From IMG/VR virus record IMGVR_UViG_3300013947_000002, positions 34,281 to 98,280 of that record: a stretch of 64,000 nucleotides of DNA; one strand, written 5' to 3'. Below the pieces are notes generated by a model. It did not search any database, was not told the DNA's origin, and was given only the letters and a program-made list of their open reading frames with translations. Positions 21,485 to 34,878 of this stretch are shown in pieces (within the stretch, counting starts at the first letter, position 1; each line of letters opens with the position of its first letter). Both the position numbers and the translations under genes were made by a program. The DNA is from a virus.

Positions 21485-21618
21485 CTGATATATTGTGGAA
21501 TATTATTTCTCTTGCCGGTACTATTGCACTTGCATTGGCAACCATTGGAACTTGTATTCTTTTAGCATGTGGTATAATTTGCATCATTCAGCAAGTCAAG
21601 GAGAAAATTAAGAAATGA
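21481..21618 (+). CDS. small membrane peptide (45 aa)
   Basis: ATGA overlaps at both ends. Contains ILWNIISLAGTIALALATIGTCILLACGIICII. Confidence 0.4.
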   Translation: MTDILWNIISLAGTIALALATIGTCILLACGIICIIQQVKEKIKK

Positions 21619-22040
21619 TCGAAACAACGATTTATAAATGCGAATACTGTGGAGCGGAGTTTGATGATGAATATGAGGCGAATTGCCATGAATGGGTGTG
21701 TTGGTATGTCGACGTGAAGAAACGTGACGGTGGCAGCCTTAGATTTTATAAGGAAGATGGCACAGAAATCAAATTTGATGACCCTGGTTTCGTATGGGCT
21801 GAATTTGACGATGTGATGGCATTTACAGTTGCTAATGATAGCGACGTAAAATTCGCTAAAGACTTCTTTGAATGGCATGGCTATAGCAATCCATTTCGAG
21901 CCATTGAGGACGATGAGCATCCGAACTATTATGGTCTATGGTGGTTCGACCCAGATCTGCATTATGGTGGATGGGTGCGCGTAGACGACCAGATTAAAAA
22001 ATGGGTAGATACTAAAAATAAATTTGTCAAAAGGGCTTGA
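21615..22040 (+). CDS. hypothetical protein
   Basis: Coupled ORF with an N-terminal CxxC..CxxxxC. Confidence 0.55.
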   Translation: MIETTIYKCEYCGAEFDDEYEANCHEWVCWYVDVKKRDGGSLRFYKEDGTEIKFDDPGFVWAEFDDVMAFTVANDSDVKFAKDFFEWHGYSNPFRAIEDDEHPNYYGLWWFDPDLHYGGWVRVDDQIKKWVDTKNKFVKRA

Positions 22041-22065
22041 CATATGCGATTCTATATGGTATAAT
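22037..22065 (+). promoter_or_regulatory. sigma-A-like extended -10 promoter
   Basis: TTGACA 22037-42, 17 nt spacer, TGG-TATAAT 22060-65. Confidence 0.65.
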
Positions 22066-22095
22066 CCAATTATCAAATGAACGGAGATAACGATT

Positions 22096-22251
22096 ATGCT
22101 TAATACTTATTTCAAAATTGGCGATTATATTTGCCGCGTTGACCGCTATGACCGAGAAACTGGTCTGTGGGGATATCGTTGTGACGATGTACCTGTGTTC
22201 AATGGCTGGGCTTGTGAAAAATTTATTGAGATGAATAAAATTTGTAGTTGA
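22096..22251 (+). CDS. hypothetical protein (51 aa)
   Basis: ATG follows ACGGAG. Its leader is nearly identical to the leader at 30024-30055. Confidence 0.4.
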   Translation: MLNTYFKIGDYICRVDRYDRETGLWGYRCDDVPVFNGWACEKFIEMNKICS

Positions 22252-22276
22252 CAAACAGCAAATCGTGTGGTATAAT
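22248..22276 (+). promoter_or_regulatory. sigma-A-like extended -10 promoter driving the tRNA-like gene
   Basis: TTGACA 22248-53, 17 nt spacer, TGG-TATAAT 22271-76. Confidence 0.65.
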
Positions 22277-22373
22277 TAAGAAGCAATGAGGGAATTGGGA
22301 AGCCTGATTTGCGGCATTGTGAACCTCCTGAAAATATAGTCCTGAGCATGACGGTAAAACTGCTCGACAATAT

Positions 22374-22451
22374 GGTAGGGACGCCAATGTGGTATCGGCA
22401 CCGCCCTTATAAGACGGAGATAGTTTGGTTCGAATCCAACCCCTATCACCA
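22374..22451 (+). tRNA. tRNA-like gene, anticodon UAU (Ile/AUA reader), CCA encoded
   Basis: Acceptor GGTAGGG/CCCTATC (one G-U), D-loop with GG, anticodon loop CTTATAA, T-arm TTGG-TTCGAAT-CCAA, then A-CCA. Deviations are A8, a C-A mismatch in the anticodon stem and one extra T in the T-stem. Confidence 0.55.
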
Positions 22452-22484
22452 CGAAAAAATATAGATAATTAATGAGGCGATAAC

Positions 22485-22748
22485 ATGAAATTGTTCAAAG
22501 TATGGGTAGACAAGGTTGACTATGACACCTATGATTCGTTTGTGTGTGTAGCAAATAGCGAAGAGGAAATTAGAAACAGTATCAGCGTAGATAGGTATAA
22601 CAGTCGTGTTATACATTTGGACGAGGGTGATGACAAGTATGAAACCTATGTCGCTTTTGAGGATTTTCAGGGCGAAATTCATATTGAAGAGGTAAATCTT
22701 GATGTAGATAAGCCATACATTGTATGCGCAAGCTATAATGCTGGTTGA
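22485..22748 (+). CDS. hypothetical protein
   Basis: ORF after GAGGCG. No motif recognised. Confidence 0.5.
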   Translation: MKLFKVWVDKVDYDTYDSFVCVANSEEEIRNSISVDRYNSRVIHLDEGDDKYETYVAFEDFQGEIHIEEVNLDVDKPYIVCASYNAG

Positions 22749-22757
22749 GGTGATAAT

Positions 22758-23096
22758 ATGAGACTATATTTCGACATCGATGACTCTTGGTATGAGGGCT
22801 ATGATAGTTATGATTTTAGAAAAGACATTGAGTCTGGAATTGTAGAATCGATCACTAATCGTCTATTGTCGGAAGACAAATACAGTTTCGCCGAAGAAGA
22901 GGCACGACAAATTGTTAAAGAAAACAAAACCGAGATTATTGATAAGGTAGTGCAGACAGTCAGTGCTACAATTCTCAAAAAACAAGAAATCAAATTGCTT
23001 GCGCCGTCTCTGTCTGAACTAAAAAATGCTGATGCTCAGGTTGTCAAATATTTTGAGGAAATGGTTGACAAGGCTATTGCTAAGAGGTTTAAGTAA
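22758..23096 (+). CDS. hypothetical protein
   Basis: ATG follows GAGGTG. Confidence 0.5.
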   Translation: MRLYFDIDDSWYEGYDSYDFRKDIESGIVESITNRLLSEDKYSFAEEEARQIVKENKTEIIDKVVQTVSATILKKQEIKLLAPSLSELKNADAQVVKYFEEMVDKAIAKRFK

Positions 23097-23097
23097 T

Positions 23098-23346
23098 ATG
23101 GAACAATCTCCGCTAAAAGCTATACGCGCCCACTGCATCGAATGTAGTTGTGGCTCAACCAGCGAAGTCAAAAATTGCGTCATCCGTGATTGTGAGCTGT
23201 GGCCGTTTCGCATGGGCAACAATCCATTCCGTACCCGCTCAATGACCGATGAACAGAAGCAAGCTGCGGCTGAACGGCTCAAATCCGCTCGTCTCGCTAA
23301 AAAATCTTCATTAAATAATGTAGAAAATTCTGAACAAGAAGATTAG
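23098..23346 (+). CDS. small Zn-finger protein
   Basis: Contains IRAHCIECSCGSTSEVKNCVIRDCELWPFRMG, a Cys4-type motif. The ATG lies 1 nt after the upstream stop. Confidence 0.55.
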   Translation: MEQSPLKAIRAHCIECSCGSTSEVKNCVIRDCELWPFRMGNNPFRTRSMTDEQKQAAAERLKSARLAKKSSLNNVENSEQED

Positions 23347-23398
23347 TAAGGTAAGTTGTAGTGTAAATAATAAAGGAAATTTTATTGATTATTAGTGT

Positions 23399-23500
23399 AT
23401 GAATCTTAACGATTGGATTTGTTTACTTGCTGGAATCGGCTATTCATTGTTTATGTTTGTGTGTGGTGCAGCATGGGCAAGCGACGTGTTGAAAAAATAA
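23399..23500 (+). CDS. small membrane peptide (33 aa)
   Basis: MNLNDWICLLAGIGYSLFMFVCGAAWASDVLKK. Confidence 0.3.
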   Translation: MNLNDWICLLAGIGYSLFMFVCGAAWASDVLKK

Positions 23501-23512
23501 TTAAAATACCTC

Positions 23513-23541
23513 TTGATAAATAAAATCAAATGTGGTATAAT
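23513..23541 (+). promoter_or_regulatory. sigma-A-like extended -10 promoter of the large ncRNA
   Basis: TTGATA 23513-18, 17 nt spacer, TGG-TATAAT 23536-41. Confidence 0.65.
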
Positions 23542-23547
23542 TGAGAA

Positions 23548-24555
23548 TGTAAAGATGATGGTGCTACGAAGCCCACAGAGGACACTATCCATGGAGTGCC
23601 GAGCTGGGGAATACAGGAGCAGTAGTAAATGGAGTGAGATGAACAGCCATCATTATATGCCATATGAGGTCTTGAATGCGAATGAGCCAATGGCTGAAAT
23701 TGCTCATCCAGATTTGGAGTAGTATTCAAGATATAACCTTAGCATTGCTCGTGCGAGAGGCAAGCCAAGCTAACTGCATATCCTACGTGGAATGTCTGTC
23801 TTGGATGGAAAAGAGCGAATTAGGGAACGTGCGTGAGATAAATGAGAGAAGCATAAAAGCGGGTCACAGTCGTGTGAAAGACCGTAATGCCAAGTAGGGC
23901 GCACCAGTCAATCTGTTCGGCATAATAAAGGGATTGGGGTTGACGATTATAGAATGGCACATCGGAAAGACGATGATAATATCCGACCGGATTTGAAGAT
24001 AACCGTCAAATCTATATCACGCCTGCACTGGGGTCTGCGCAGAGTTTGAGAAGCGGCAGATACAGACTAGAGAATTGGGGTCGCGCCCAATCGTGCCACG
24101 TTAGCATCCATGCAAAAACGTAACGTCGAAGGTGATATAAGGATGTTATGTAAACAGCATTCACGAGCCGATGCTAGAAGTAGCTATGAGGTAGGAAGTC
24201 GGCTTGAGATTGAATATGGAAGTGTAAGCTAACTGGATAAACCTCGCCAATTTGGTGAGATTGCAAGTTCGATTCTTGTCACTTCTATTCCCCCACATCC
24301 ATCACGCTTCTGTTTAGCATTGCAAGCGTACCACGATGGATGTATAGAAAAGTCTAAAATCCTAGCTTTGTAAGGCTGAACACAAGAATTGGTCACTTGT
24401 GAACGGTCTAGTTTATAAGTTATAATGCTAGTTGCCGAATAGTTGAAAGCTGACCACCTGACGCTATGAGGCAGCGCTCGCCACACTCCCGATTTTAAGA
24501 TGGTTGCGCAACTGTAAATTCAATTTAGCCTGAATTTGTAAGGAGTGTGGCAATT
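23548..24555 (+). ncRNA. candidate giant (~1 kb) structured non-coding RNA
   Basis: No SD-preceded ORF, and the GC content looks higher than the flanks by eye. Nested helices at 23555-61/23647-53, 23940-50/23999-24009, 24296-24309/24324-24342 and 24480-89/24542-51. Confidence 0.6.
24218..24287 (+). other. tRNA-like module embedded in the large RNA
   Basis: Acceptor GGAAGTG/CACTTCT, anticodon-like stem CTCGC/GTGAG with loop CAATTTG, and T-arm GCAAG-TTCGATT-CTTGT. The D-stem is degenerate and no CCA is encoded. Confidence 0.45.
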
Positions 24556-24637
24556 CTATCAGGTCAATATGCGCATGAACATAGCGACTTGTTTTAATAA
24601 AATTTTATTAGAAATCGAAAGGAATTTATCAGGAACA

Positions 24638-24913
24638 ATGACAAAGAAGGAACTAATCAAGTATGTTGCTGGCTCGACCGAGCATACCATTAAGGACACA
24701 GAAGAAATTGTTGATGAATTTATCGACTATGTCAAGAATGCGCTGATTGAGCATGAGGATGTAACCATCCACGGCTTCGGCACATTCAAGACCAAGCTAC
24801 GCGATGCTCGTACAGCTAGAAACCCCCAGACCGGTGAAACCATTGAAGTCCCTGCCAAGTATGCACTGGCATTTAAGCCGACAAGCACATTCAAGGCGGC
24901 TATCAATGAGTGA
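24638..24913 (+). CDS. HU-family DNA-binding protein (91 aa)
   Basis: MTKKELIKYVA...VTIHGFGTFKTKLRDARTARNPQTGETIEVPAKYALAFKPTSTFK is the canonical HU sequence pattern. Confidence 0.9.
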   Translation: MTKKELIKYVAGSTEHTIKDTEEIVDEFIDYVKNALIEHEDVTIHGFGTFKTKLRDARTARNPQTGETIEVPAKYALAFKPTSTFKAAINE

Positions 24914-24930
24914 ATAATCCTCCTGTTAAA

Positions 24931-24964
24931 AATCCCTATGGTCGAAAGATTGTAGGGATTTTTC
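24931..24964 (+). terminator. rho-independent terminator
   Basis: ATCCCTA (24932-38) pairs with TAGGGAT (24953-59), followed by a T-run. Confidence 0.75.
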
Positions 24965-24976
24965 TAAAAATAACCC

Positions 24977-25005
24977 TTGACAAATCGCCGCTGTGGTGCT
25001 ATACT
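24977..25005 (+). promoter_or_regulatory. sigma-A-like promoter of the recombinase gene
   Basis: TTGACA 24977-82, 17 nt spacer, TGC-TATACT 25000-05. Confidence 0.6.
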
Positions 25006-25034
25006 TAAACCATCAAATAAAGGAGCTGAATGAT

Positions 25035-25871
25035 ATGAACGAACTATTTATTATGTCGCTTAAAGCAAAGCATCGTAGTGAGGGTACCATTCGCGAATAT
25101 ACCAAGGCGATCGAGAACTGCTTGTCGTATGTCAAGAAGCCTGAAACCGACATCAAGCCGATTGACCTTGAGTTGTGGCAGTCCAGCATGAGCAATCTTA
25201 GCTCTGCATCCGTAGCACAGCGCACATCGGCTGTTCGCGAGTATTTCAAGTTCTTGTATCGCAATGAATTTATCAGTCGCAATCCTGCTGATATGCTTGA
25301 AGCGCCGAGTATCAAGAATCGTGAGCAGTCGGCTCTTGATGGAGAGCAGGTCAGAGCGATGATTAACGCCGCAACAAATCTGCGTAACAAGGCGATTATT
25401 ACGATGCTGGCTCAGACCGGTCTTCGCATCCATGAGCTTGCCAATATCACGCTTGAGCAGTATCAGAGCCGCAATGGTAATGTGTTGGTCATTCGTGGTA
25501 AGGGTGATAAGGATAGGCTGGTTGGCCTGGCTGATGAGACGATCAAGCTGATTGATAGCTATATTGCTAATGAGCGCAAAGACGGCTGCGAATACCTGTT
25601 CGTCGGCAATCGCGGCAATAAGATGGACGGCAAGAACACCAGTGCTATGCTCAAGGTGTGCGCTAAGAAGGCTGGTATTGAGAATTGGGAGGAGTTGCAT
25701 ATCAGCAATCATACGATGCGCCGCACGTTTGCTACGATGATGTCCGAAGCCGACGTACCTATTGAGATAATTAGTAAGGCAATGGGGCACTCAGGTTTGG
25801 CTATCACGTCCAGATACATCAAGCGCACCGAGCAGAGAGCGGTCAATGCTATGGCTGTTATGAGTTTTTAA
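25035..25871 (+). CDS. tyrosine recombinase/integrase (XerC/D-like)
   Basis: N-terminal SAM-like domain (EGTIREYTKAIENCL), then GLRIHELANI, HTMRRTFAT and GHSGLAITSRY (R..HxxR..H..Y). Confidence 0.9.
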   Translation: MNELFIMSLKAKHRSEGTIREYTKAIENCLSYVKKPETDIKPIDLELWQSSMSNLSSASVAQRTSAVREYFKFLYRNEFISRNPADMLEAPSIKNREQSALDGEQVRAMINAATNLRNKAIITMLAQTGLRIHELANITLEQYQSRNGNVLVIRGKGDKDRLVGLADETIKLIDSYIANERKDGCEYLFVGNRGNKMDGKNTSAMLKVCAKKAGIENWEELHISNHTMRRTFATMMSEADVPIEIISKAMGHSGLAITSRYIKRTEQRAVNAMAVMSF

Positions 25872-27948: not shown

Positions 27949-28575
27949 ATTAAGAAATTTGGTAAAGAACATCCTAATTTTAAGGGGAATGAGTGGCGTA
28001 TCGATGGTAATGTTGCAATCGGTATAGATGCTAGAGGGAATGAATTTTTGATTGATATCGCAGACATGGACGCTGTGAGTTATCATAGATGGAGTGGGCG
28101 AGATAAATCATCAAGACGTGCTTTGGGTGGCATTTATTTTACTGCTAGAATGTCGCGTACAGCACCTACTGGCAACAAAATTAAAATGTTGCAGAATTTT
28201 ATATGGGAGATACATAATGGTGAAATTCCTGATGGATATATGGTTGATCATATAAATATGAAGCCCTATGATAACCGCTATTCTAATTTGCGCCTAGCCA
28301 ATAAGAGTGTCAACGCTTTTAATGCACAGCGCATAAACAAAGTAAGCAATTGTGGTATTGTAGGCGTTATGAAGGTCAAAGATAATACTAAATATAAAGC
28401 TGGTCAATACCGCGCGTATATTTCATACGGTGGTAAACGACATGAATTAGGATATTATAAAAATATAGAAGACGCAATTATCGAACGGCTCAAAGCAGAG
28501 CTTGAGCATTTTGGAGAAATTTGTCCAAATAATAGAGAGTTATATAAAGAGTATGAGGATAGAGTGAATGGTTAA
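27949..28575 (+). CDS. HNH endonuclease with AP2-like DNA-binding domain (free-standing)
   Basis: DHINMKPYDNRYSNLRLANKSVNAFN (HNH), and GVMKVKDN..YRAYISYGGKRHELGYYKNIEDA (AP2-like). The frame is open from 27931. The likely start is ATT, 10 nt after AAGGAG. The first canonical start is the TTG at 28048. Confidence 0.7.
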   Translation: MKKFGKEHPNFKGNEWRIDGNVAIGIDARGNEFLIDIADMDAVSYHRWSGRDKSSRRALGGIYFTARMSRTAPTGNKIKMLQNFIWEIHNGEIPDGYMVDHINMKPYDNRYSNLRLANKSVNAFNAQRINKVSNCGIVGVMKVKDNTKYKAGQYRAYISYGGKRHELGYYKNIEDAIIERLKAELEHFGEICPNNRELYKEYEDRVNG

Positions 28576-30717: not shown

Positions 30718-31038
30718 ATGGAATACAATATTGGGGATATTATCAAGCTCAAGAATGATGCTGGTGTATTTAAGGTTGAAATTAAGAGAAAAATGGAAAC
30801 AAATCAAGCCATTCAAGGATATGACGATGATTGCAGGTTTGATGGCGAGATGCGGCTCGAGGTGCATCATAGGGATTATGGTGAATATATCATCACTATG
30901 ACGAGCCGTGAAGAATCTAACGACACTGGTAGAATTATTGTATGCTGGCTTAATACTTGTAACGACGAGGTTGAATATTATCTTGGGCAGATTATTCAGT
31001 ACGAAGAAAAAGAAGACGTGTTCGAGCTGATGAAGTGA
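30718..31038 (+). CDS. hypothetical protein
   Basis: ATG follows AAGGAGGA. Confidence 0.55.
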   Translation: MEYNIGDIIKLKNDAGVFKVEIKRKMETNQAIQGYDDDCRFDGEMRLEVHHRDYGEYIITMTSREESNDTGRIIVCWLNTCNDEVEYYLGQIIQYEEKEDVFELMK

Positions 31039-34000
31039 TGAGTAAGAATTATACGATTCTTCACCTTCATTCCATGCTGTCTAACGGTGTAACTAATATT
31101 GATTCAGTCACACGGTACGACCAATATATAAATCGTGCCGCAGAGCTTGGCATGAAGGCTATTGCGTTCAGTGAACATGGGTCTGTTTTTCAGTGGGTTA
31201 GGAAAAAATTGTACGCCGAAGAAATGGGCTTAAAATTTATTGCAGCTGAAGAATTTTATCTAACTCAAACCCTATCAGAAAAAATTCGCGACAACTATCA
31301 CTGTCTGCTTATCGCCAAGAATTATGATGGCGTACTAGAGCTAAACAAGTTATCAACTAAATCATTCAATCGTGATGATAATTCATTCTACTATGTTCCG
31401 CGAATCACGATTGATGATGTGAAAAATACAAGCGACAATATTATCGTAAGCACGGCTTGCTTGGGCGGCGTTCTTAATAAAGCGCCAGATGATGTCAGAT
31501 GGGATTTTTATCATTGGTTATGTGAGCATAAAGATCGCTGTTTCCTTGAGATTCAGCCCCATCTTGACCCGGCTCAAAAGAGCTACAATAACACGCTATG
31601 GGCGCTATCCAAACAGAGCGGATTGCGGTTGTTAATGTGTACTGACACCCATGCGCTCAATTCTACCCATGTAGATGGGCGGCGCATTTTGCAGAAAGCC
31701 AAGAATATTCACTTTGATGGCGAAGACCGGTTTCACCTTGAGATGATGAACTACGATGAACTAGTTCAGCTATGCCGTATGCAAGATGTGCTTCCCATGG
31801 ATGTGTATCTGGACGCTATCGAGATGACCAATACTGTGGCTGATATGGTTGAGCCGTTCGAGCTTGATTATAGCTATAAATATCCTCATCTATGGGGCGA
31901 TGATAGCGAGGCTGTGCTTAGAGCTAAGATAGCAGATGGCATTAAATGGCGCGGCGTTGATAAACTATCTAATTATCAAGAATACCTAGACCGCATTGAA
32001 TATGAAATGAAGGCGTACATTCATAACGGCGCCATTGACTTTATGCTGCTCATGGAAGATATTGTTACTTGGTGTAGAACGCAAGATATTCAGATTGGAT
32101 ATGGGCGCGGCTCTTGCACCGGCAGTTTGATTGCTTACCTGCTTGGCATTACTGAGATGGATAGCATTAAGCATAAGCTTAATTTCGATCGCTTCATGAA
32201 TGTCGAGCGCGTATCATTGTCTGATATCGACTCGGATATACCGCCTAACAGAATTGATGAAGTAAAGAATTATGTATTTAACAAGCATGGGTTGTATTGT
32301 GCCGATATTGTTACATTTAATACCATTGCTCTAAAGGGTGCTATTCGGGATGTTGGTAGGGCACTTGAAATGTCGCTTGATGAGGTGGGCGATATTTGCA
32401 ATAAGGTTGAACAAGACGAGGCCGGATGCCGCGCCAAATACCCAGAGCTATTTAAGTATGTAGATATTGTTAATGGTTGTGTTGTATCGGTTGGCAACCA
32501 TCCATCAGGAATGATTGTTGCGCCGCATAGCATTGATGACTGCATGGGGTTATTTACTACAACAACCGATACCGTGCCAATCAGCCAAATCAATATGAAA
32601 GAGGTTGACTTGCAGAATTATGTAAAGCTCGACTTGTTAAAGCTGATTACGATACAGATTATCAATGAGACGTGTAAGATGTGTGGAATTGAGCGCTTAA
32701 CACCTGATAATATTGATGTTGCAGACAACGCCGTGTGGCGTTCTATCAGAGATGATACGACAGCAATATTTCAGTGGGAATCAGGCAGCGCAAGGCAGTA
32801 TATAGCCAAGTTGCTATCAGATACAACCATTGCCAAGTTGCGCAAGGTTCAGCCAGATATCGACTATATCACATTGCTGTCTATGGGCAATGGTGCGATT
32901 CGTCCTGCTGGTGCATCATACCGCGATGAGCTTGCCAATGGCGATGTTCGCACATATGACAATGAGGCTATTAACCATTTCATGTCTGATACGTTCGGCT
33001 TTCTTATCTTCCAATGCCAGATTATCGGATTTTTGCATAAATACTGCGGTTATACTATGGGCGAGGCCGATGTGGTGCGCCGCCATTTCGCCAAGAAGAC
33101 GGGTACAGATAAGGATATACCGCAAATTAAGGCTGGATTCGCTAAGACAATGGCTGAGCAATACGGCATGAGCCAAGAGCAATCTGATAAAACCATAGCG
33201 GATTTTATTCAGGTCATTGAGGATGCCAGCAATTACTTGTTCTCTCTCAACCATAGTCAGCCATATAGCTATGAGGGCTATGCAGAGGGATGGCTTAGAT
33301 ATTATTATCCGTTTCAGTTCTTGACAGTGTGCCTAAATGTCAATCAGGGCGACAATTCTGAGACATCGGCTCTGACCGCCTATGCTCATAAGATGGGCAT
33401 TAAAATCAAGTCGCCGCGATTCCGTCATTCTCGCTCGGATTATTTTTGCGATACTGCTGAAAATGTAATCTATAAGGGGCTTGGCTCAATTAAGTATATG
33501 AGCGCAGATGTGGCTGAAGCTCTGTATGGTATGCGCGATATGCAGTTTAAGAATTTTATTGATGTGCTGTTTGCCATCCAGCAGCTTGAATCAAAGCCTG
33601 ATTCGCGCCAACTTGATATTCTAGTCAAGATCGGCTATTTTGACGAATTTGGCCCACCCAAAGCGCTATTGATTGGCATTGAGATTTTTAATAAATTTTC
33701 AAAATGCAAGACAATTAAACTTGACAAATGGCGCGAAATAGGGTATAATGTAGATATGCTTGCGCCCTATGCCGGTAAGATGACGGATAAGACGGCGAGC
33801 CAGCTTGATAATCGTGGTATTGTACTGGCCATCCTACGTTCAATGGAAATGCCAAAAACAACGATTATTGATAGGCTAAAATGGCAATCTGAGCTACTTG
33901 GCTATGTTGATACTTGTGACCCTAAATCGCCCATTACAGATTGGCTTGTGCTTGATGTTAAGACAACTGGTTATGGCACGGTATATTGCCGCCTGTATAA

Positions 34001-34190
34001 TATCAGCATTGGCATTGAGCGTGAAATGCGGGCGAATCGGCAATTTTGGGCTAAGAACAAATTAGAGCGTGGAGACGCAATTAGAGCTGTGACGCAAGAG
34101 AAAAATAAGATGAAAAAGGATGAAAATGGTGAATGGGTGAGAACTAGTGAGGTTTACACCGAATTGAAATGCTGGTCTAGGATTGATTAA
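31035..34190 (+). CDS. DNA polymerase III alpha-type (DnaE/YorL-like) replicative polymerase
   Basis: PHP motifs LHLHSMLSNG and FSEHGSV, plus the palm segment GYGRGSCTGSLIAYLLGIT. 1051 aa. Confidence 0.85.
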   Translation: MMSKNYTILHLHSMLSNGVTNIDSVTRYDQYINRAAELGMKAIAFSEHGSVFQWVRKKLYAEEMGLKFIAAEEFYLTQTLSEKIRDNYHCLLIAKNYDGVLELNKLSTKSFNRDDNSFYYVPRITIDDVKNTSDNIIVSTACLGGVLNKAPDDVRWDFYHWLCEHKDRCFLEIQPHLDPAQKSYNNTLWALSKQSGLRLLMCTDTHALNSTHVDGRRILQKAKNIHFDGEDRFHLEMMNYDELVQLCRMQDVLPMDVYLDAIEMTNTVADMVEPFELDYSYKYPHLWGDDSEAVLRAKIADGIKWRGVDKLSNYQEYLDRIEYEMKAYIHNGAIDFMLLMEDIVTWCRTQDIQIGYGRGSCTGSLIAYLLGITEMDSIKHKLNFDRFMNVERVSLSDIDSDIPPNRIDEVKNYVFNKHGLYCADIVTFNTIALKGAIRDVGRALEMSLDEVGDICNKVEQDEAGCRAKYPELFKYVDIVNGCVVSVGNHPSGMIVAPHSIDDCMGLFTTTTDTVPISQINMKEVDLQNYVKLDLLKLITIQIINETCKMCGIERLTPDNIDVADNAVWRSIRDDTTAIFQWESGSARQYIAKLLSDTTIAKLRKVQPDIDYITLLSMGNGAIRPAGASYRDELANGDVRTYDNEAINHFMSDTFGFLIFQCQIIGFLHKYCGYTMGEADVVRRHFAKKTGTDKDIPQIKAGFAKTMAEQYGMSQEQSDKTIADFIQVIEDASNYLFSLNHSQPYSYEGYAEGWLRYYYPFQFLTVCLNVNQGDNSETSALTAYAHKMGIKIKSPRFRHSRSDYFCDTAENVIYKGLGSIKYMSADVAEALYGMRDMQFKNFIDVLFAIQQLESKPDSRQLDILVKIGYFDEFGPPKALLIGIEIFNKFSKCKTIKLDKWREIGYNVDMLAPYAGKMTDKTASQLDNRGIVLAILRSMEMPKTTIIDRLKWQSELLGYVDTCDPKSPITDWLVLDVKTTGYGTVYCRLYNISIGIEREMRANRQFWAKNKLERGDAIRAVTQEKNKMKKDENGEWVRTSEVYTELKCWSRID
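33721..33749 (+). promoter_or_regulatory. consensus promoter internal to the polymerase gene
   Basis: TTGACA 33721-26, 17 nt spacer, TATAAT 33744-49. Confidence 0.35.
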
Positions 34191-34218: not shown

Positions 34219-34878
34219 ATGGGTATCAGTGTGATGATTTTGGGCGATAGTGGCAGTGGCAAATCTGCCTCTATGCGCAACTTTAGTGGTAACGATGTGG
34301 CGATTCTAAATGTTGCATCCAAGCCGCTCCCATTCCGCAACAAGAATGGGCTAAAGATGGCCAATAAAGCCACATATGAAATGATTAAGGGTGCTGTATC
34401 AAGCAATCGCGCACCGAGCTACGTTATTGATGACGCACAGTACCTTATGGCGTTTGAGAGCTTTGCTAAAGCCAATGAAACAGGATACGGCAAGTTCACC
34501 GTAATGGCTAAGAATTATGAAGAAATGCTGCGTTATGTGCAGGAGGAAACTAGCCCAGATACAATCGTGTATGTTATGCAACATATCGAAACGGATGAAA
34601 ATGGCAAGGTTAAGGCTAAGACGCTAGGCAAGATGCTAGATCAGCAGCTTACAGTAGAGGGGCTATTTACCATTGTCTTGCTTTGCGAGGCAGACGAAAC
34701 CGGGCATCACTTTATCACTCAGTCCGATGGTACAAATCCGGCCAAGTCGCCTATGGGTATGTTTGATTCCGTAAAGATTGATAATGACCTAAAGATGGTT
34801 GATGATGCCATTAGAGACTATTATGGGTTGAAAAAGCCAAAAAATACAAGTAAGTCTACTACGGCAAAAGCCGAGTAA
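34219..34878 (+). CDS. P-loop ATPase (AAA_24/Sak4-like recombination ATPase)
   Basis: Walker A ILGDSGSGKSAS, Walker B-like YVIDDAQ. About 220 aa. Confidence 0.6.
   Translation: MGISVMILGDSGSGKSASMRNFSGNDVAILNVASKPLPFRNKNGLKMANKATYEMIKGAVSSNRAPSYVIDDAQYLMAFESFAKANETGYGKFTVMAKNYEEMLRYVQEETSPDTIVYVMQHIETDENGKVKAKTLGKMLDQQLTVEGLFTIVLLCEADETGHHFITQSDGTNPAKSPMGMFDSVKIDNDLKMVDDAIRDYYGLKKPKNTSKSTTAKAE

Follow-up and report, generated by a model that had tools for sequence, protein, structure and literature searches.

Large structured RNAs encoded by phages are few, and to our knowledge none has a known function. This report concerns an RNA cassette in a 64,000-nucleotide (nt) stretch of viral DNA, positions 34,281 to 98,280 of IMG/VR virus record IMGVR_UViG_3300013947_000002, which is referred to as the window and supplies all coordinates unless a relative is named. 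The cassette lies between a promoter at its 5′ end and a gene for the DNA-binding protein HU, and consists of a chain of domains (M2 to M7), a tRNA-like element, and two further modules (M8 and M9). It is a real, conserved, structured, and non-coding RNA cassette that is new to Rfam. Its domains are separable, and it is accessory to the phage clade that carries it.

GOLLD is a large non-coding RNA encoded by phages near tRNA islands, in which a tRNA sometimes lies in the linker between the 5′ and 3′ regions (PMC12286853). The cassette resembles GOLLD in its phage context, in the tRNA-like element at 24218-24287, in the real tRNAs that occupy the same slot in relatives, and in its variable domain composition. 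However, it does not match the Rfam GOLLD model, and its pattern of conservation is reversed. GOLLD has a 3′ region that is conserved universally and a 5′ region that is conserved less, whereas M4, M6, and M7 of the cassette are 91-94% identical among relatives and M8 is 83% identical and missing in 8 of 43 islands (an island being the region between an upstream 82-aa gene and HU, counted in 43 distinct relatives). In addition, no supported fold joins the two halves of the cassette, and its minimal natural version is ~135 nt plus a tRNA. ROOL occurs in phages and prophages of Firmicutes and of gut or rumen communities, often near tRNA islands (PMC12286853, PMC5737381). The cassette shares this gut phage setting near tRNAs but has no Rfam ROOL match, and its consensus folds comprise one multistem domain (M6) plus simple hairpins, with no supported pseudoknot.

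RNAC and RNAD of phage T4 are transcribed together with phage tRNAs and owe their maturation to the machinery that processes tRNAs. Both are phage non-coding RNAs of unknown function (PMC9697503). The cassette would work more like these two small, stable RNAs from the T4 cluster of tRNA genes, but the T4 RNAs are only ~120-140 nt long, are unrelated in sequence, and come from a phage of a Gram-negative host, whereas the cassette RNA is larger, modular, and located 5′ of the tRNA. In mammalian MALAT1-mascRNA and Escherichia coli 3′ETS-leuZ, a tRNA or tRNA-like fold marks a cut by RNase P or RNase Z and thereby defines the end of the neighboring RNA. The t-elements of plant mitochondria are reported as tRNA-like signals that set RNA ends (PMC1920247). 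These systems share with the cassette a tRNA-shaped fold at the end of a neighboring RNA, and processing of the cassette is predicted on this model, but none is homologous to it. Because the tRNA in most relatives is a normal decoding tRNA, a signal role would be shared with decoding. The cassette is best described as a phage RNA of the tRNA-island kind that is not a member of GOLLD or ROOL and is not shown to be one giant RNA.

Evidence for a Conserved RNA Structure

The core of the cassette (23821-24217; 400 nt), compared across 27 distinct sequences, adopts a consensus fold of 70 pairs that are 99.4% canonical. All ten doubly variable pairs, defined as pairs in which both columns vary with a minor allele of at least 2, are compensatory, versus 2.5% of other variable-column pairs (Fisher p 1e-16). 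The background column pairs come from the same alignment and hence share its phylogeny. These are the statistically supported compensatory pairs whose absence the sequence-only reading of this DNA would have counted against an RNA. In alignment A1 (13 sequences), 13 pairs changed on both sides versus 3.8 ± 1.6 in column shuffles (none of 500 shuffles reached 13), and sliding the partners by 1-3 columns left 1-3 pairs with double changes.

The double changes in the core are located in M6 and M7, with most in M6. Pair variants in M6 include GC/AU/UG/CG at 24079:24086, CG/GC/AU/UG at 24038:24056, and AU/GC at 24103:24121. In M7, CCGA/UCGG becomes UCAG/CUGG in relative L026, and GCUA/UAGC becomes GCUG/CAGC in L004 (L numbers denote related loci). 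The M4a and M4b helices show G-U changes only, and support for M4a therefore consists of conservation and of variation in hairpin length. Outside the core, three of six doubly variable pairs in M2 are compensatory, versus 4 of 523 background pairs (p 3e-5). Covariation in M8 is weak (2 of 7 doubly variable pairs, p 0.013), and support for M8 and M9 combined is likewise weaker than in the core (3 of 7, p 1e-3). The core of 400 nt, above all M6 and M7, thus has demonstrated covariation. Support is weaker in M2 and M8-M9, and the demonstration does not extend to the whole kilobase.

Predicted pairs of the core hold 238 G·U cells and 6 A·C cells. This asymmetry fixes the + strand as the structured one, argues against a DNA hairpin element, and led to the rejection of structure at the DNA level or on the minus strand. 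The secondary structure therefore covaries on the + strand. Folding energies relative to shuffled sequences give minimum free energy (MFE) z-scores of -0.12 for 23548-23820, -0.67 for the core, and -2.7 for 24288-24560. An initial description of the whole region as helix-dense is therefore above chance thermodynamically for the 3′ part and not for the 5′ part or the core. Since only the 3′ part folds better than chance, the structural evidence is comparative and not energetic. Long-range pairing between the core and M8-M9 was also sought, and the best duplex was no better than shuffles (10/30).

No open reading frame (ORF) longer than 85 aa occurs in 23548-24560, nor between the promoter and the HU start at 24638. 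Variable sites among relatives lack 3-nt periodicity in every RNA block (p 0.7-0.99), whereas the controls are clearly periodic (HU, p 7e-10; recombinase/integrase, p 4e-38; upstream 82-aa gene, p 9e-4), and of the 209 gaps in the core just 24 have a length divisible by three. On these two tests a protein-coding region was rejected, and the initial prediction of about 1 kb of non-coding DNA holds. Compared with the window, M7 averages 94% identity, M6 93%, M4 91%, M8 83%, and M9 91%. For the flanking genes (HU, the integrase, and the 82-aa gene upstream), identity is 56-63% at third codon positions and 85-96% at first and second positions. The RNA region is non-coding and under purifying selection.

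Domain Architecture

The coordinates of the domains and of neighboring features are collected in Table 1.

Table 1. Features of the RNA cassette and its surroundings in the window, in order of position.
Feature	Coordinates	Strand	Basis
Second cassette of the same design: 12/12 promoter, conserved ~90-nt leader, tRNA-Ile(UAU)	22248-22448	+	Promoter scan, Rfam tRNA model
Sigma-70/SigA-type extended -10 promoter TTGATA-17-TGgTATAAT (block M1)	23513-23541	+	11/12 matches plus TG
M2: optional 5′ hairpin domain closed by AUGAUGG/CCAUCAU (23555-61/23647-53)	23554-23656	+	Consensus fold, 13 distinct homologues
M3: rare variable segment, closest relatives only; no established structure	23660-23820	+	Block comparison
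M4a: conserved stem GUGCGU (23829-34)/GCGCAC (23899-904)	23821-23906	+	Alignment A1, consensus fold
M4b: hairpin GUCAAUCUGUUC...GGGAUUGGGGUUGAC with invariant loop	23907-23944	+	12 pairs, 99% paired, no double changes
M5: optional small hairpin CAUCG-GAAAGA-CGAUG, lost or replaced in many relatives	23945-23975	+	Alignment A1, columns 150-175
M6: optional multi-helix domain, closing helices 23976-84/24141-49 and 24014-20/24132-38	23976-24149	+	Covariation
M7: nearly invariant terminal hairpin (24164-72/24198-206, inner 24173-76/24181-84)	24150-24217	+	40/43 islands, mean 94% identity
tRNA-like element	24218-24287	+	Rfam tRNA, 30.9 bits vs cut-off 29
Perfect hairpin CAUCCAUCACGCUU.../...AAGCGU..GAUGGAUG without U-tract; closest relatives only	24296-24342	+	
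M8: conserved 3′ module, hairpin CACAAG...CUUGUG, stem GUUGCC-GA-AUAGU...GCUAU-GA-GGCAGC	24347-24477	+	35/43 islands, mean 83% identity
M9: long hairpin GCCACACUCC/GGAGUGUGGC (24480-89/24542-51)	24478-24556	+	Consensus fold, 20 homologues
Conserved HU leader with ribosome-binding site	24557-24637	+	Outside the cassette
HU-family DNA-binding protein	24638-24913	+	Pfam Bac_DNA_binding, E 1e-31
Tyrosine recombinase/integrase	25035-25871	+	Pfam Phage_integrase, E 1e-33; own promoter 24977-25005

Within the M4a stem lie an asymmetric internal loop that is near-invariant and a distal hairpin whose length varies. M4a is kept in the minimal cassette of L047, where M4b is absent. The inner hairpins of M6 lie at 23989-24013, 24022-32, 24035-59, 24075-90, and 24099-24125, and the entire domain is absent from L004, L021, L047, and L061. 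M7 contains a conserved purine-rich bulge, UAUGAGGUAGGAAG, and is followed by an A/U-rich linker that ends in AUAU.

Four helices had been traced by hand in the window before relatives were compared. Those that close M2 and form M9 are backed by the consensus fold of the relatives. The hairpin at 24296-24342 is perfectly paired but limited to a few close relatives. The helix at 23940-50/23999-24009 survives only as UUGAC/GUCAA, its other six pairs being mismatched in most relatives, and its UUGAC has a competing partner at 23907-11.

The 9-mer GCUAUGAGG occurs both in M7 (24183-24191) and in M8 (24463-24471), and a copy with one mismatch, GCAAUGAGG, is found where the tRNA-Ile leader of the second cassette is predicted to begin (22283-22291). 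With one mismatch allowed, the window holds 28 matches versus 12 ± 3.6 expected. Its recurrence may reflect a binding site in common or may be due to chance.

The tRNA-like Element and Its Junction with M7

The sequence-only reading had placed a tRNA-like module inside the RNA, and the Rfam tRNA model recovers it immediately after M7. Its acceptor and T arms are intact, its D stem is weakened, and its anticodon arm is replaced. The Rfam alignment gives it a 3-nt anticodon loop and two D-stem mismatches, and an alternative 7-nt loop, CAAUUUG, lacks U33. It is not a canonical tRNA, and ARAGORN rejects it. Homologues of the element have normal anticodon loops; the degenerate form of this Ile/Val-like family, with its replaced anticodon arm and weakened D stem, is shared by the window, L084, and L074. 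The acceptor stem is preserved by a compensatory C-G to U-A change (alignment A2). Acceptor and T arms are the features recognized by RNase P, RNase Z, and the CCA-adding enzyme. The element has therefore kept the features used by processing enzymes and lost those used in decoding.

The junction between M7 and the tRNA is conserved, and the cassette is modular. ARAGORN places a tRNA within 2 nt of the M7 end in 33 of 40 M7-bearing islands, whichever tRNA comes next. The order is the M7 helix, the linker of 8-11 nt, and then position +1 of the tRNA. The base before the tRNA is U in 28 of the ARAGORN calls, and the other five are consistent with a 1-nt shift of the called start. The tRNA bodies that follow M7 include at least three different tRNA-Leu(CAA) sequences, tRNA-Leu(UAA), tRNA-Phe(GAA), and the Ile/Val-like family, and most of the tRNAs at the junction encode CCA. 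At the sequence level, the 3′ end of the M7-side RNA coincides with the 5′ end of the tRNA, under a single conserved promoter and with no terminator. One tRNA family, found after M7 or later in the island, varies in its anticodon (tat in L006 and L007, tac in L016, tgt in L010, and aat in L058). Such variability (UAU, UAC, UGU, AAU) is unusual for otherwise conserved tRNAs.

A second cassette of the same design lies ~1.2 kb upstream, where a tRNA-like gene with its own promoter had been predicted from the window alone. Its promoter (22248-22276) matches the consensus at 12 of 12 positions, and its tRNA (22374-22448, anticodon UAU) scores 36.9 bits with the Rfam tRNA model in the search at E ≤ 10. 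ARAGORN misses this tRNA, whose versions in relatives are 89-95 nt long. Within the leader, a block at 22315-22359 is 93-100% identical in several relatives and includes ACCUCCU (22323-22329), which is identical to the anti-Shine-Dalgarno core. Relatives keep this leader while the tRNA behind it varies or is missing. The repetition of the design suggests that a promoter, a conserved leader, and an exchangeable tRNA together form a general strategy of the phage clade.

Searches against Known RNA Families

Rfam 15 was searched with cmscan over the whole window and 22 related loci at the gathering score, and over 22000-24800 (2.8 kb) at E ≤ 10. The sole match in the window at the gathering score is the weak tRNA at 24218-24287, and the related loci yielded no families other than tRNA and, in two of them, RAGATH-33. 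The GOLLD and ROOL models have no match in the whole window at the gathering score or in the 22 related loci, and GOLLD, ROOL, OLE, raiA, HEARO, tmRNA, RNase P, intron, T-box, and Y RNA-like models have none in 22000-24800 at E ≤ 10. Besides tRNA, that permissive search yielded three implausible weak matches (snoR72, Plastid-ycf2, and Xist_exon1). ARAGORN calls neither a tmRNA nor a tRNA in the window. The sequence-only reading had left open whether the RNA belonged to the GOLLD/ROOL class or to a new family and had named GOLLD, ROOL, OLE, raiA, and tmRNA for comparison. None of these is recovered, even at E ≤ 10; absence from Rfam favors a new family, and membership in GOLLD or ROOL falls away.

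In L005 (3728-3840) and L018 (3530-3642), the same promoter-to-tRNA leader contains a RAGATH-33 RNA (RF03102, 139.9 bits), so cassettes of this type include at least one optional domain that is catalogued already. RAGATH-33 is unrelated to M2-M9 and has no match in the window. RNase P RNA was a further candidate, owing to the segment GGAAGUCGGCUU of M7, which we take to resemble the CR-I and CR-V motifs. It was dropped because no RNase P model matches and the segment forms a local covarying hairpin. CR-I and CR-V lie far apart in RNase P RNA and pair with each other, whereas the look-alikes in M7 are adjacent.

Distribution and Mosaic Architecture

With the recombinase as anchor, IMG/VR yielded 26 close relatives on contigs of ~48-101 kb, and a motif scan of metagenomes added ~30 more, mostly labelled human gut. 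The same cassette recurs in ~55 related contigs, which all belong to a single clade of human-gut phages of ~90 kb. Nothing similar was found among 50,697 records of cultured phages, and the RNA was not found in phages whose DnaE is 49-80% identical. Motif scans, both exact and degenerate, of IMG/VR, JGI/ENA metagenomes, and GTDB returned the same clade plus chance matches only; those in GTDB genomes were all chance matches.

Island length ranges from 235 to 2313 nt across the 43 distinct relatives, and M2, M4, M6, M8, and M9 are present or absent independently. M7 is carried by 40 islands, M6 and M8 by 35 each, M4 by 33, M9 by ~19, and M2 by about a third. The smallest natural cassette, in L047, consists of the promoter, M4a, M7, and tRNA-Leu, with a leader of ~135 nt before the tRNA. 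The entire cassette is missing from L012, L013, and L014, which keep HU and its conserved 80-nt leader. In these three (intergenic length 235-241 nt), the cassette site is taken up by a short ORF that has a strong ribosome-binding site (MKVVVGNRGSGVTT...) and runs into the HU leader. Other islands are enlarged. An insert of ~290 nt separates M6 from M7 in many relatives (L002, L009, L010, L015, L058, L063, L085, L088, L089, and others), and in L019 (4095-4212) and L022 (3292-3409) the M4b/M6 junction region is present a second time in diverged form (nhmmer 35-37 bits).

An HNH endonuclease gene (HNH_3 plus NUMOD1) lies within the RNA island of L022 (4013-4570), and HNH homing-endonuclease genes are possible drivers of the mosaicism. 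Mosaicism also raised the idea of an integron-like cassette array driven by the adjacent recombinase. Reading of the minimal islands revealed no shared repeat at domain boundaries, and the idea was not taken further; homing endonucleases and ordinary recombination are simpler explanations.

Genomic Setting

The window is a portion of a large phage genome and encodes a DnaE-type polymerase, a beta-CASP nuclease, HNH endonucleases, HU, and a tyrosine recombinase. The nearest cultured DnaE belongs to a Clostridioides phage (48% amino acid identity), followed by those of Bacillus siphophages (41%). This affinity is consistent with the Firmicutes-style extended -10 promoters, and the hosts of the cassette-bearing clade are probably Firmicutes.

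The promoter ahead of the RNA, recognized at the outset as a near-consensus extended -10 element, is borne out by its retention in 41 of 43 related islands at 80-98% identity. Transcription is predicted to start at ~23547-23549. A scan of 21500-25500 found four near-consensus promoters on the + strand (22037, 22248, 23513, and 24977) and no intrinsic-terminator-like site, versus 2.9 expected. RNA 3′ ends across this early region may therefore arise by processing and not by termination. The GC content of the RNA is 0.449, versus 0.408 for the whole window and 0.391 and 0.442 for the flanks, so the GC enrichment first perceived by eye is only modest. The position beside HU and the recombinase, also singled out early, is conserved, but both genes are present in relatives that lack the RNA. 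Because those relatives also carry the HU leader, this leader is not part of the cassette.

Further observations concern the surrounding genes. A 33-aa hydrophobic ORF (MNLNDWICLLAGIGYSLFMFVCGAAWASDVLKK) lies at 23399-23500, immediately 5′ of the RNA promoter; only some relatives have it, and L020 and L021 carry other small hydrophobic ORFs at the same spot. An HNH endonuclease gene of the window (28048-28575) lies just upstream of the beta-CASP nuclease gene. The window DnaE (31035-34190) is only 27-35% identical to that of many phages of the same clade (L112-L130) despite recombinases that are 86-91% identical, and it is 74-98% identical to that of other clade members. The replication module thus appears to be exchanged within the clade.

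Interpretation and Alternatives

The reading that we favor, and hold to be probable, is that the cassette represents a new family of modular phage leader RNA that shares its transcript with a tRNA or tRNA-like element, from which RNase P probably frees it, in a GOLLD-like context but outside the GOLLD family. A strong host-type promoter would direct + strand transcription of a string of autonomous folded domains (in the window M2, M3, M4a, M4b, M5, M6, and M7), which would run directly into the tRNA-shaped element and then into the structured M8-M9 stretch towards HU. Host RNase P would cut at 24217/24218, the 5′ end of the tRNA-like element, and free a leader of ~670 nt (~23548-24217) whose 3′ end would be guarded by the invariant M7 hairpin. 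Processing at the 3′ end of the tRNA would detach M8-M9, which would then form a piece of their own or stand at the 5′ end of a transcript reading through into HU. The freed leader may act in trans by binding a protein or the ribosome, for which the near-invariant unpaired internal loop of M4a and the purine-rich bulge of M7 are candidate contact sites. The tRNA of the window, its decoding features lost, would serve mainly as a processing signal. We infer where the transcript begins and ends, that RNase P cleaves it, and that the leader acts in trans.

Several points weigh against the modular leader RNA. Covariation is contributed largely by one divergent sub-lineage (L003, L024, L055, and L076) plus scattered single variants. 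The statistics are sound, but their depth is modest because that sub-lineage supplies much of the signal. Neither M4a nor M4b has a double change, and the core folds no better than its shuffled sequences. The family was restricted to one phage clade in the searches made, which limits the depth of comparison. The degenerate tRNA-like element could be a decaying gene, and the transcription start, the RNase P cleavage, and the stability of the leader are deductions from the DNA.

A more far-reaching version, possible but doubtful, would make the cassette an undescribed class of large modular phage RNA. Its tRNA-shaped element would be kept only as an RNase P signal, as a bacterial-virus counterpart of MALAT1-mascRNA, and the invariant loops would serve to capture a host factor, for example the ribosome, or to build an RNA assembly with tethered tRNAs that resembles GOLLD/ROOL. 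It is unlikely that the 5′ part, the tethered tRNA-like element, and M8-M9 stay joined and fold or oligomerize into one GOLLD-like particle. The architecture does recall the description of GOLLD as phage-encoded, near tRNA islands, and sometimes with tRNAs in the 5′/3′ linker (PMC12286853); M8 accompanies the core in most islands (35 of 43), and no terminator separates the parts. However, the GOLLD and ROOL models find no match in the 2.8 kb, and the domains vary independently, with a core lacking M8 in L004, L021, L026, L015, and L047 and M4 and M8 without M6 and M7 in L020. The best duplex between core and M8-M9 does not exceed shuffles, the 5′ region is better conserved than the 3′ region, and a tRNA with a normal leader would be expected to be cut by RNase P. 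The sequence-only reading of a giant structured non-coding RNA thus stands as to a promoter-driven, non-coding, structured, and tRNA-associated phage RNA, but not as to a single ornate RNA of ~1 kb, given the separable domains and the ~135-nt minimal leader.

The alternative of a long cis-acting 5′ leader that controls HU and the recombinase, for example as a lysis-lysogeny switch, would account for the absence of a terminator between the RNA and HU, the invariable placement of the cassette directly upstream of HU, and the significant folding of M8-M9. It is quite improbable, since the three relatives without a cassette retain HU with the same conserved leader, the recombinase has its own near-consensus promoter, the intervening tRNA would break the link between the 5′ 670 nt and the HU mRNA, and M7, the element with the highest conservation, goes with the tRNA junction and not with HU. 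The hypervariable island, the HNH endonuclease ORF in L022, the degenerate tRNA of the window, and the unexceptional folding energy of the core would also fit non-functional debris, that is, a decaying tRNA island scrambled by homing endonucleases and holding chance hairpins. Against this stand modules that are 83-94% identical beside third codon positions at 56-63%, the strong enrichment of compensatory changes, and the conserved promoter, which together leave debris very improbable. Hidden genes for small proteins, or a DNA-level element such as a hairpin origin or a recombination site, are scarcely credible. Short ORFs do exist and the region adjoins HU and the recombinase, but codon periodicity is lacking, most indels are not multiples of three, G·U far exceeds A·C as in + strand RNA and unlike duplex or minus-strand DNA hairpins, and a conserved promoter is directed into the region.

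Significance

GOLLD and ROOL have recently been shown to form RNA-only cages. The family added by the cassette is unrelated to them and comes from abundant human-gut phages, but it shares the genomic signature of GOLLD and ROOL, namely a strong promoter, tRNA neighbors, and variable domains. One main limit is its narrow known distribution in a single clade. The cassette has been dissected naturally, since relatives span the range from a 135-nt minimal leader to more than 1 kb and swap the tRNA partner freely. This natural dissection makes it a tractable system in which to study the role of tRNA-linked phage RNAs and the possible use in bacteria of tRNA-like folds as end-forming signals for other RNAs.

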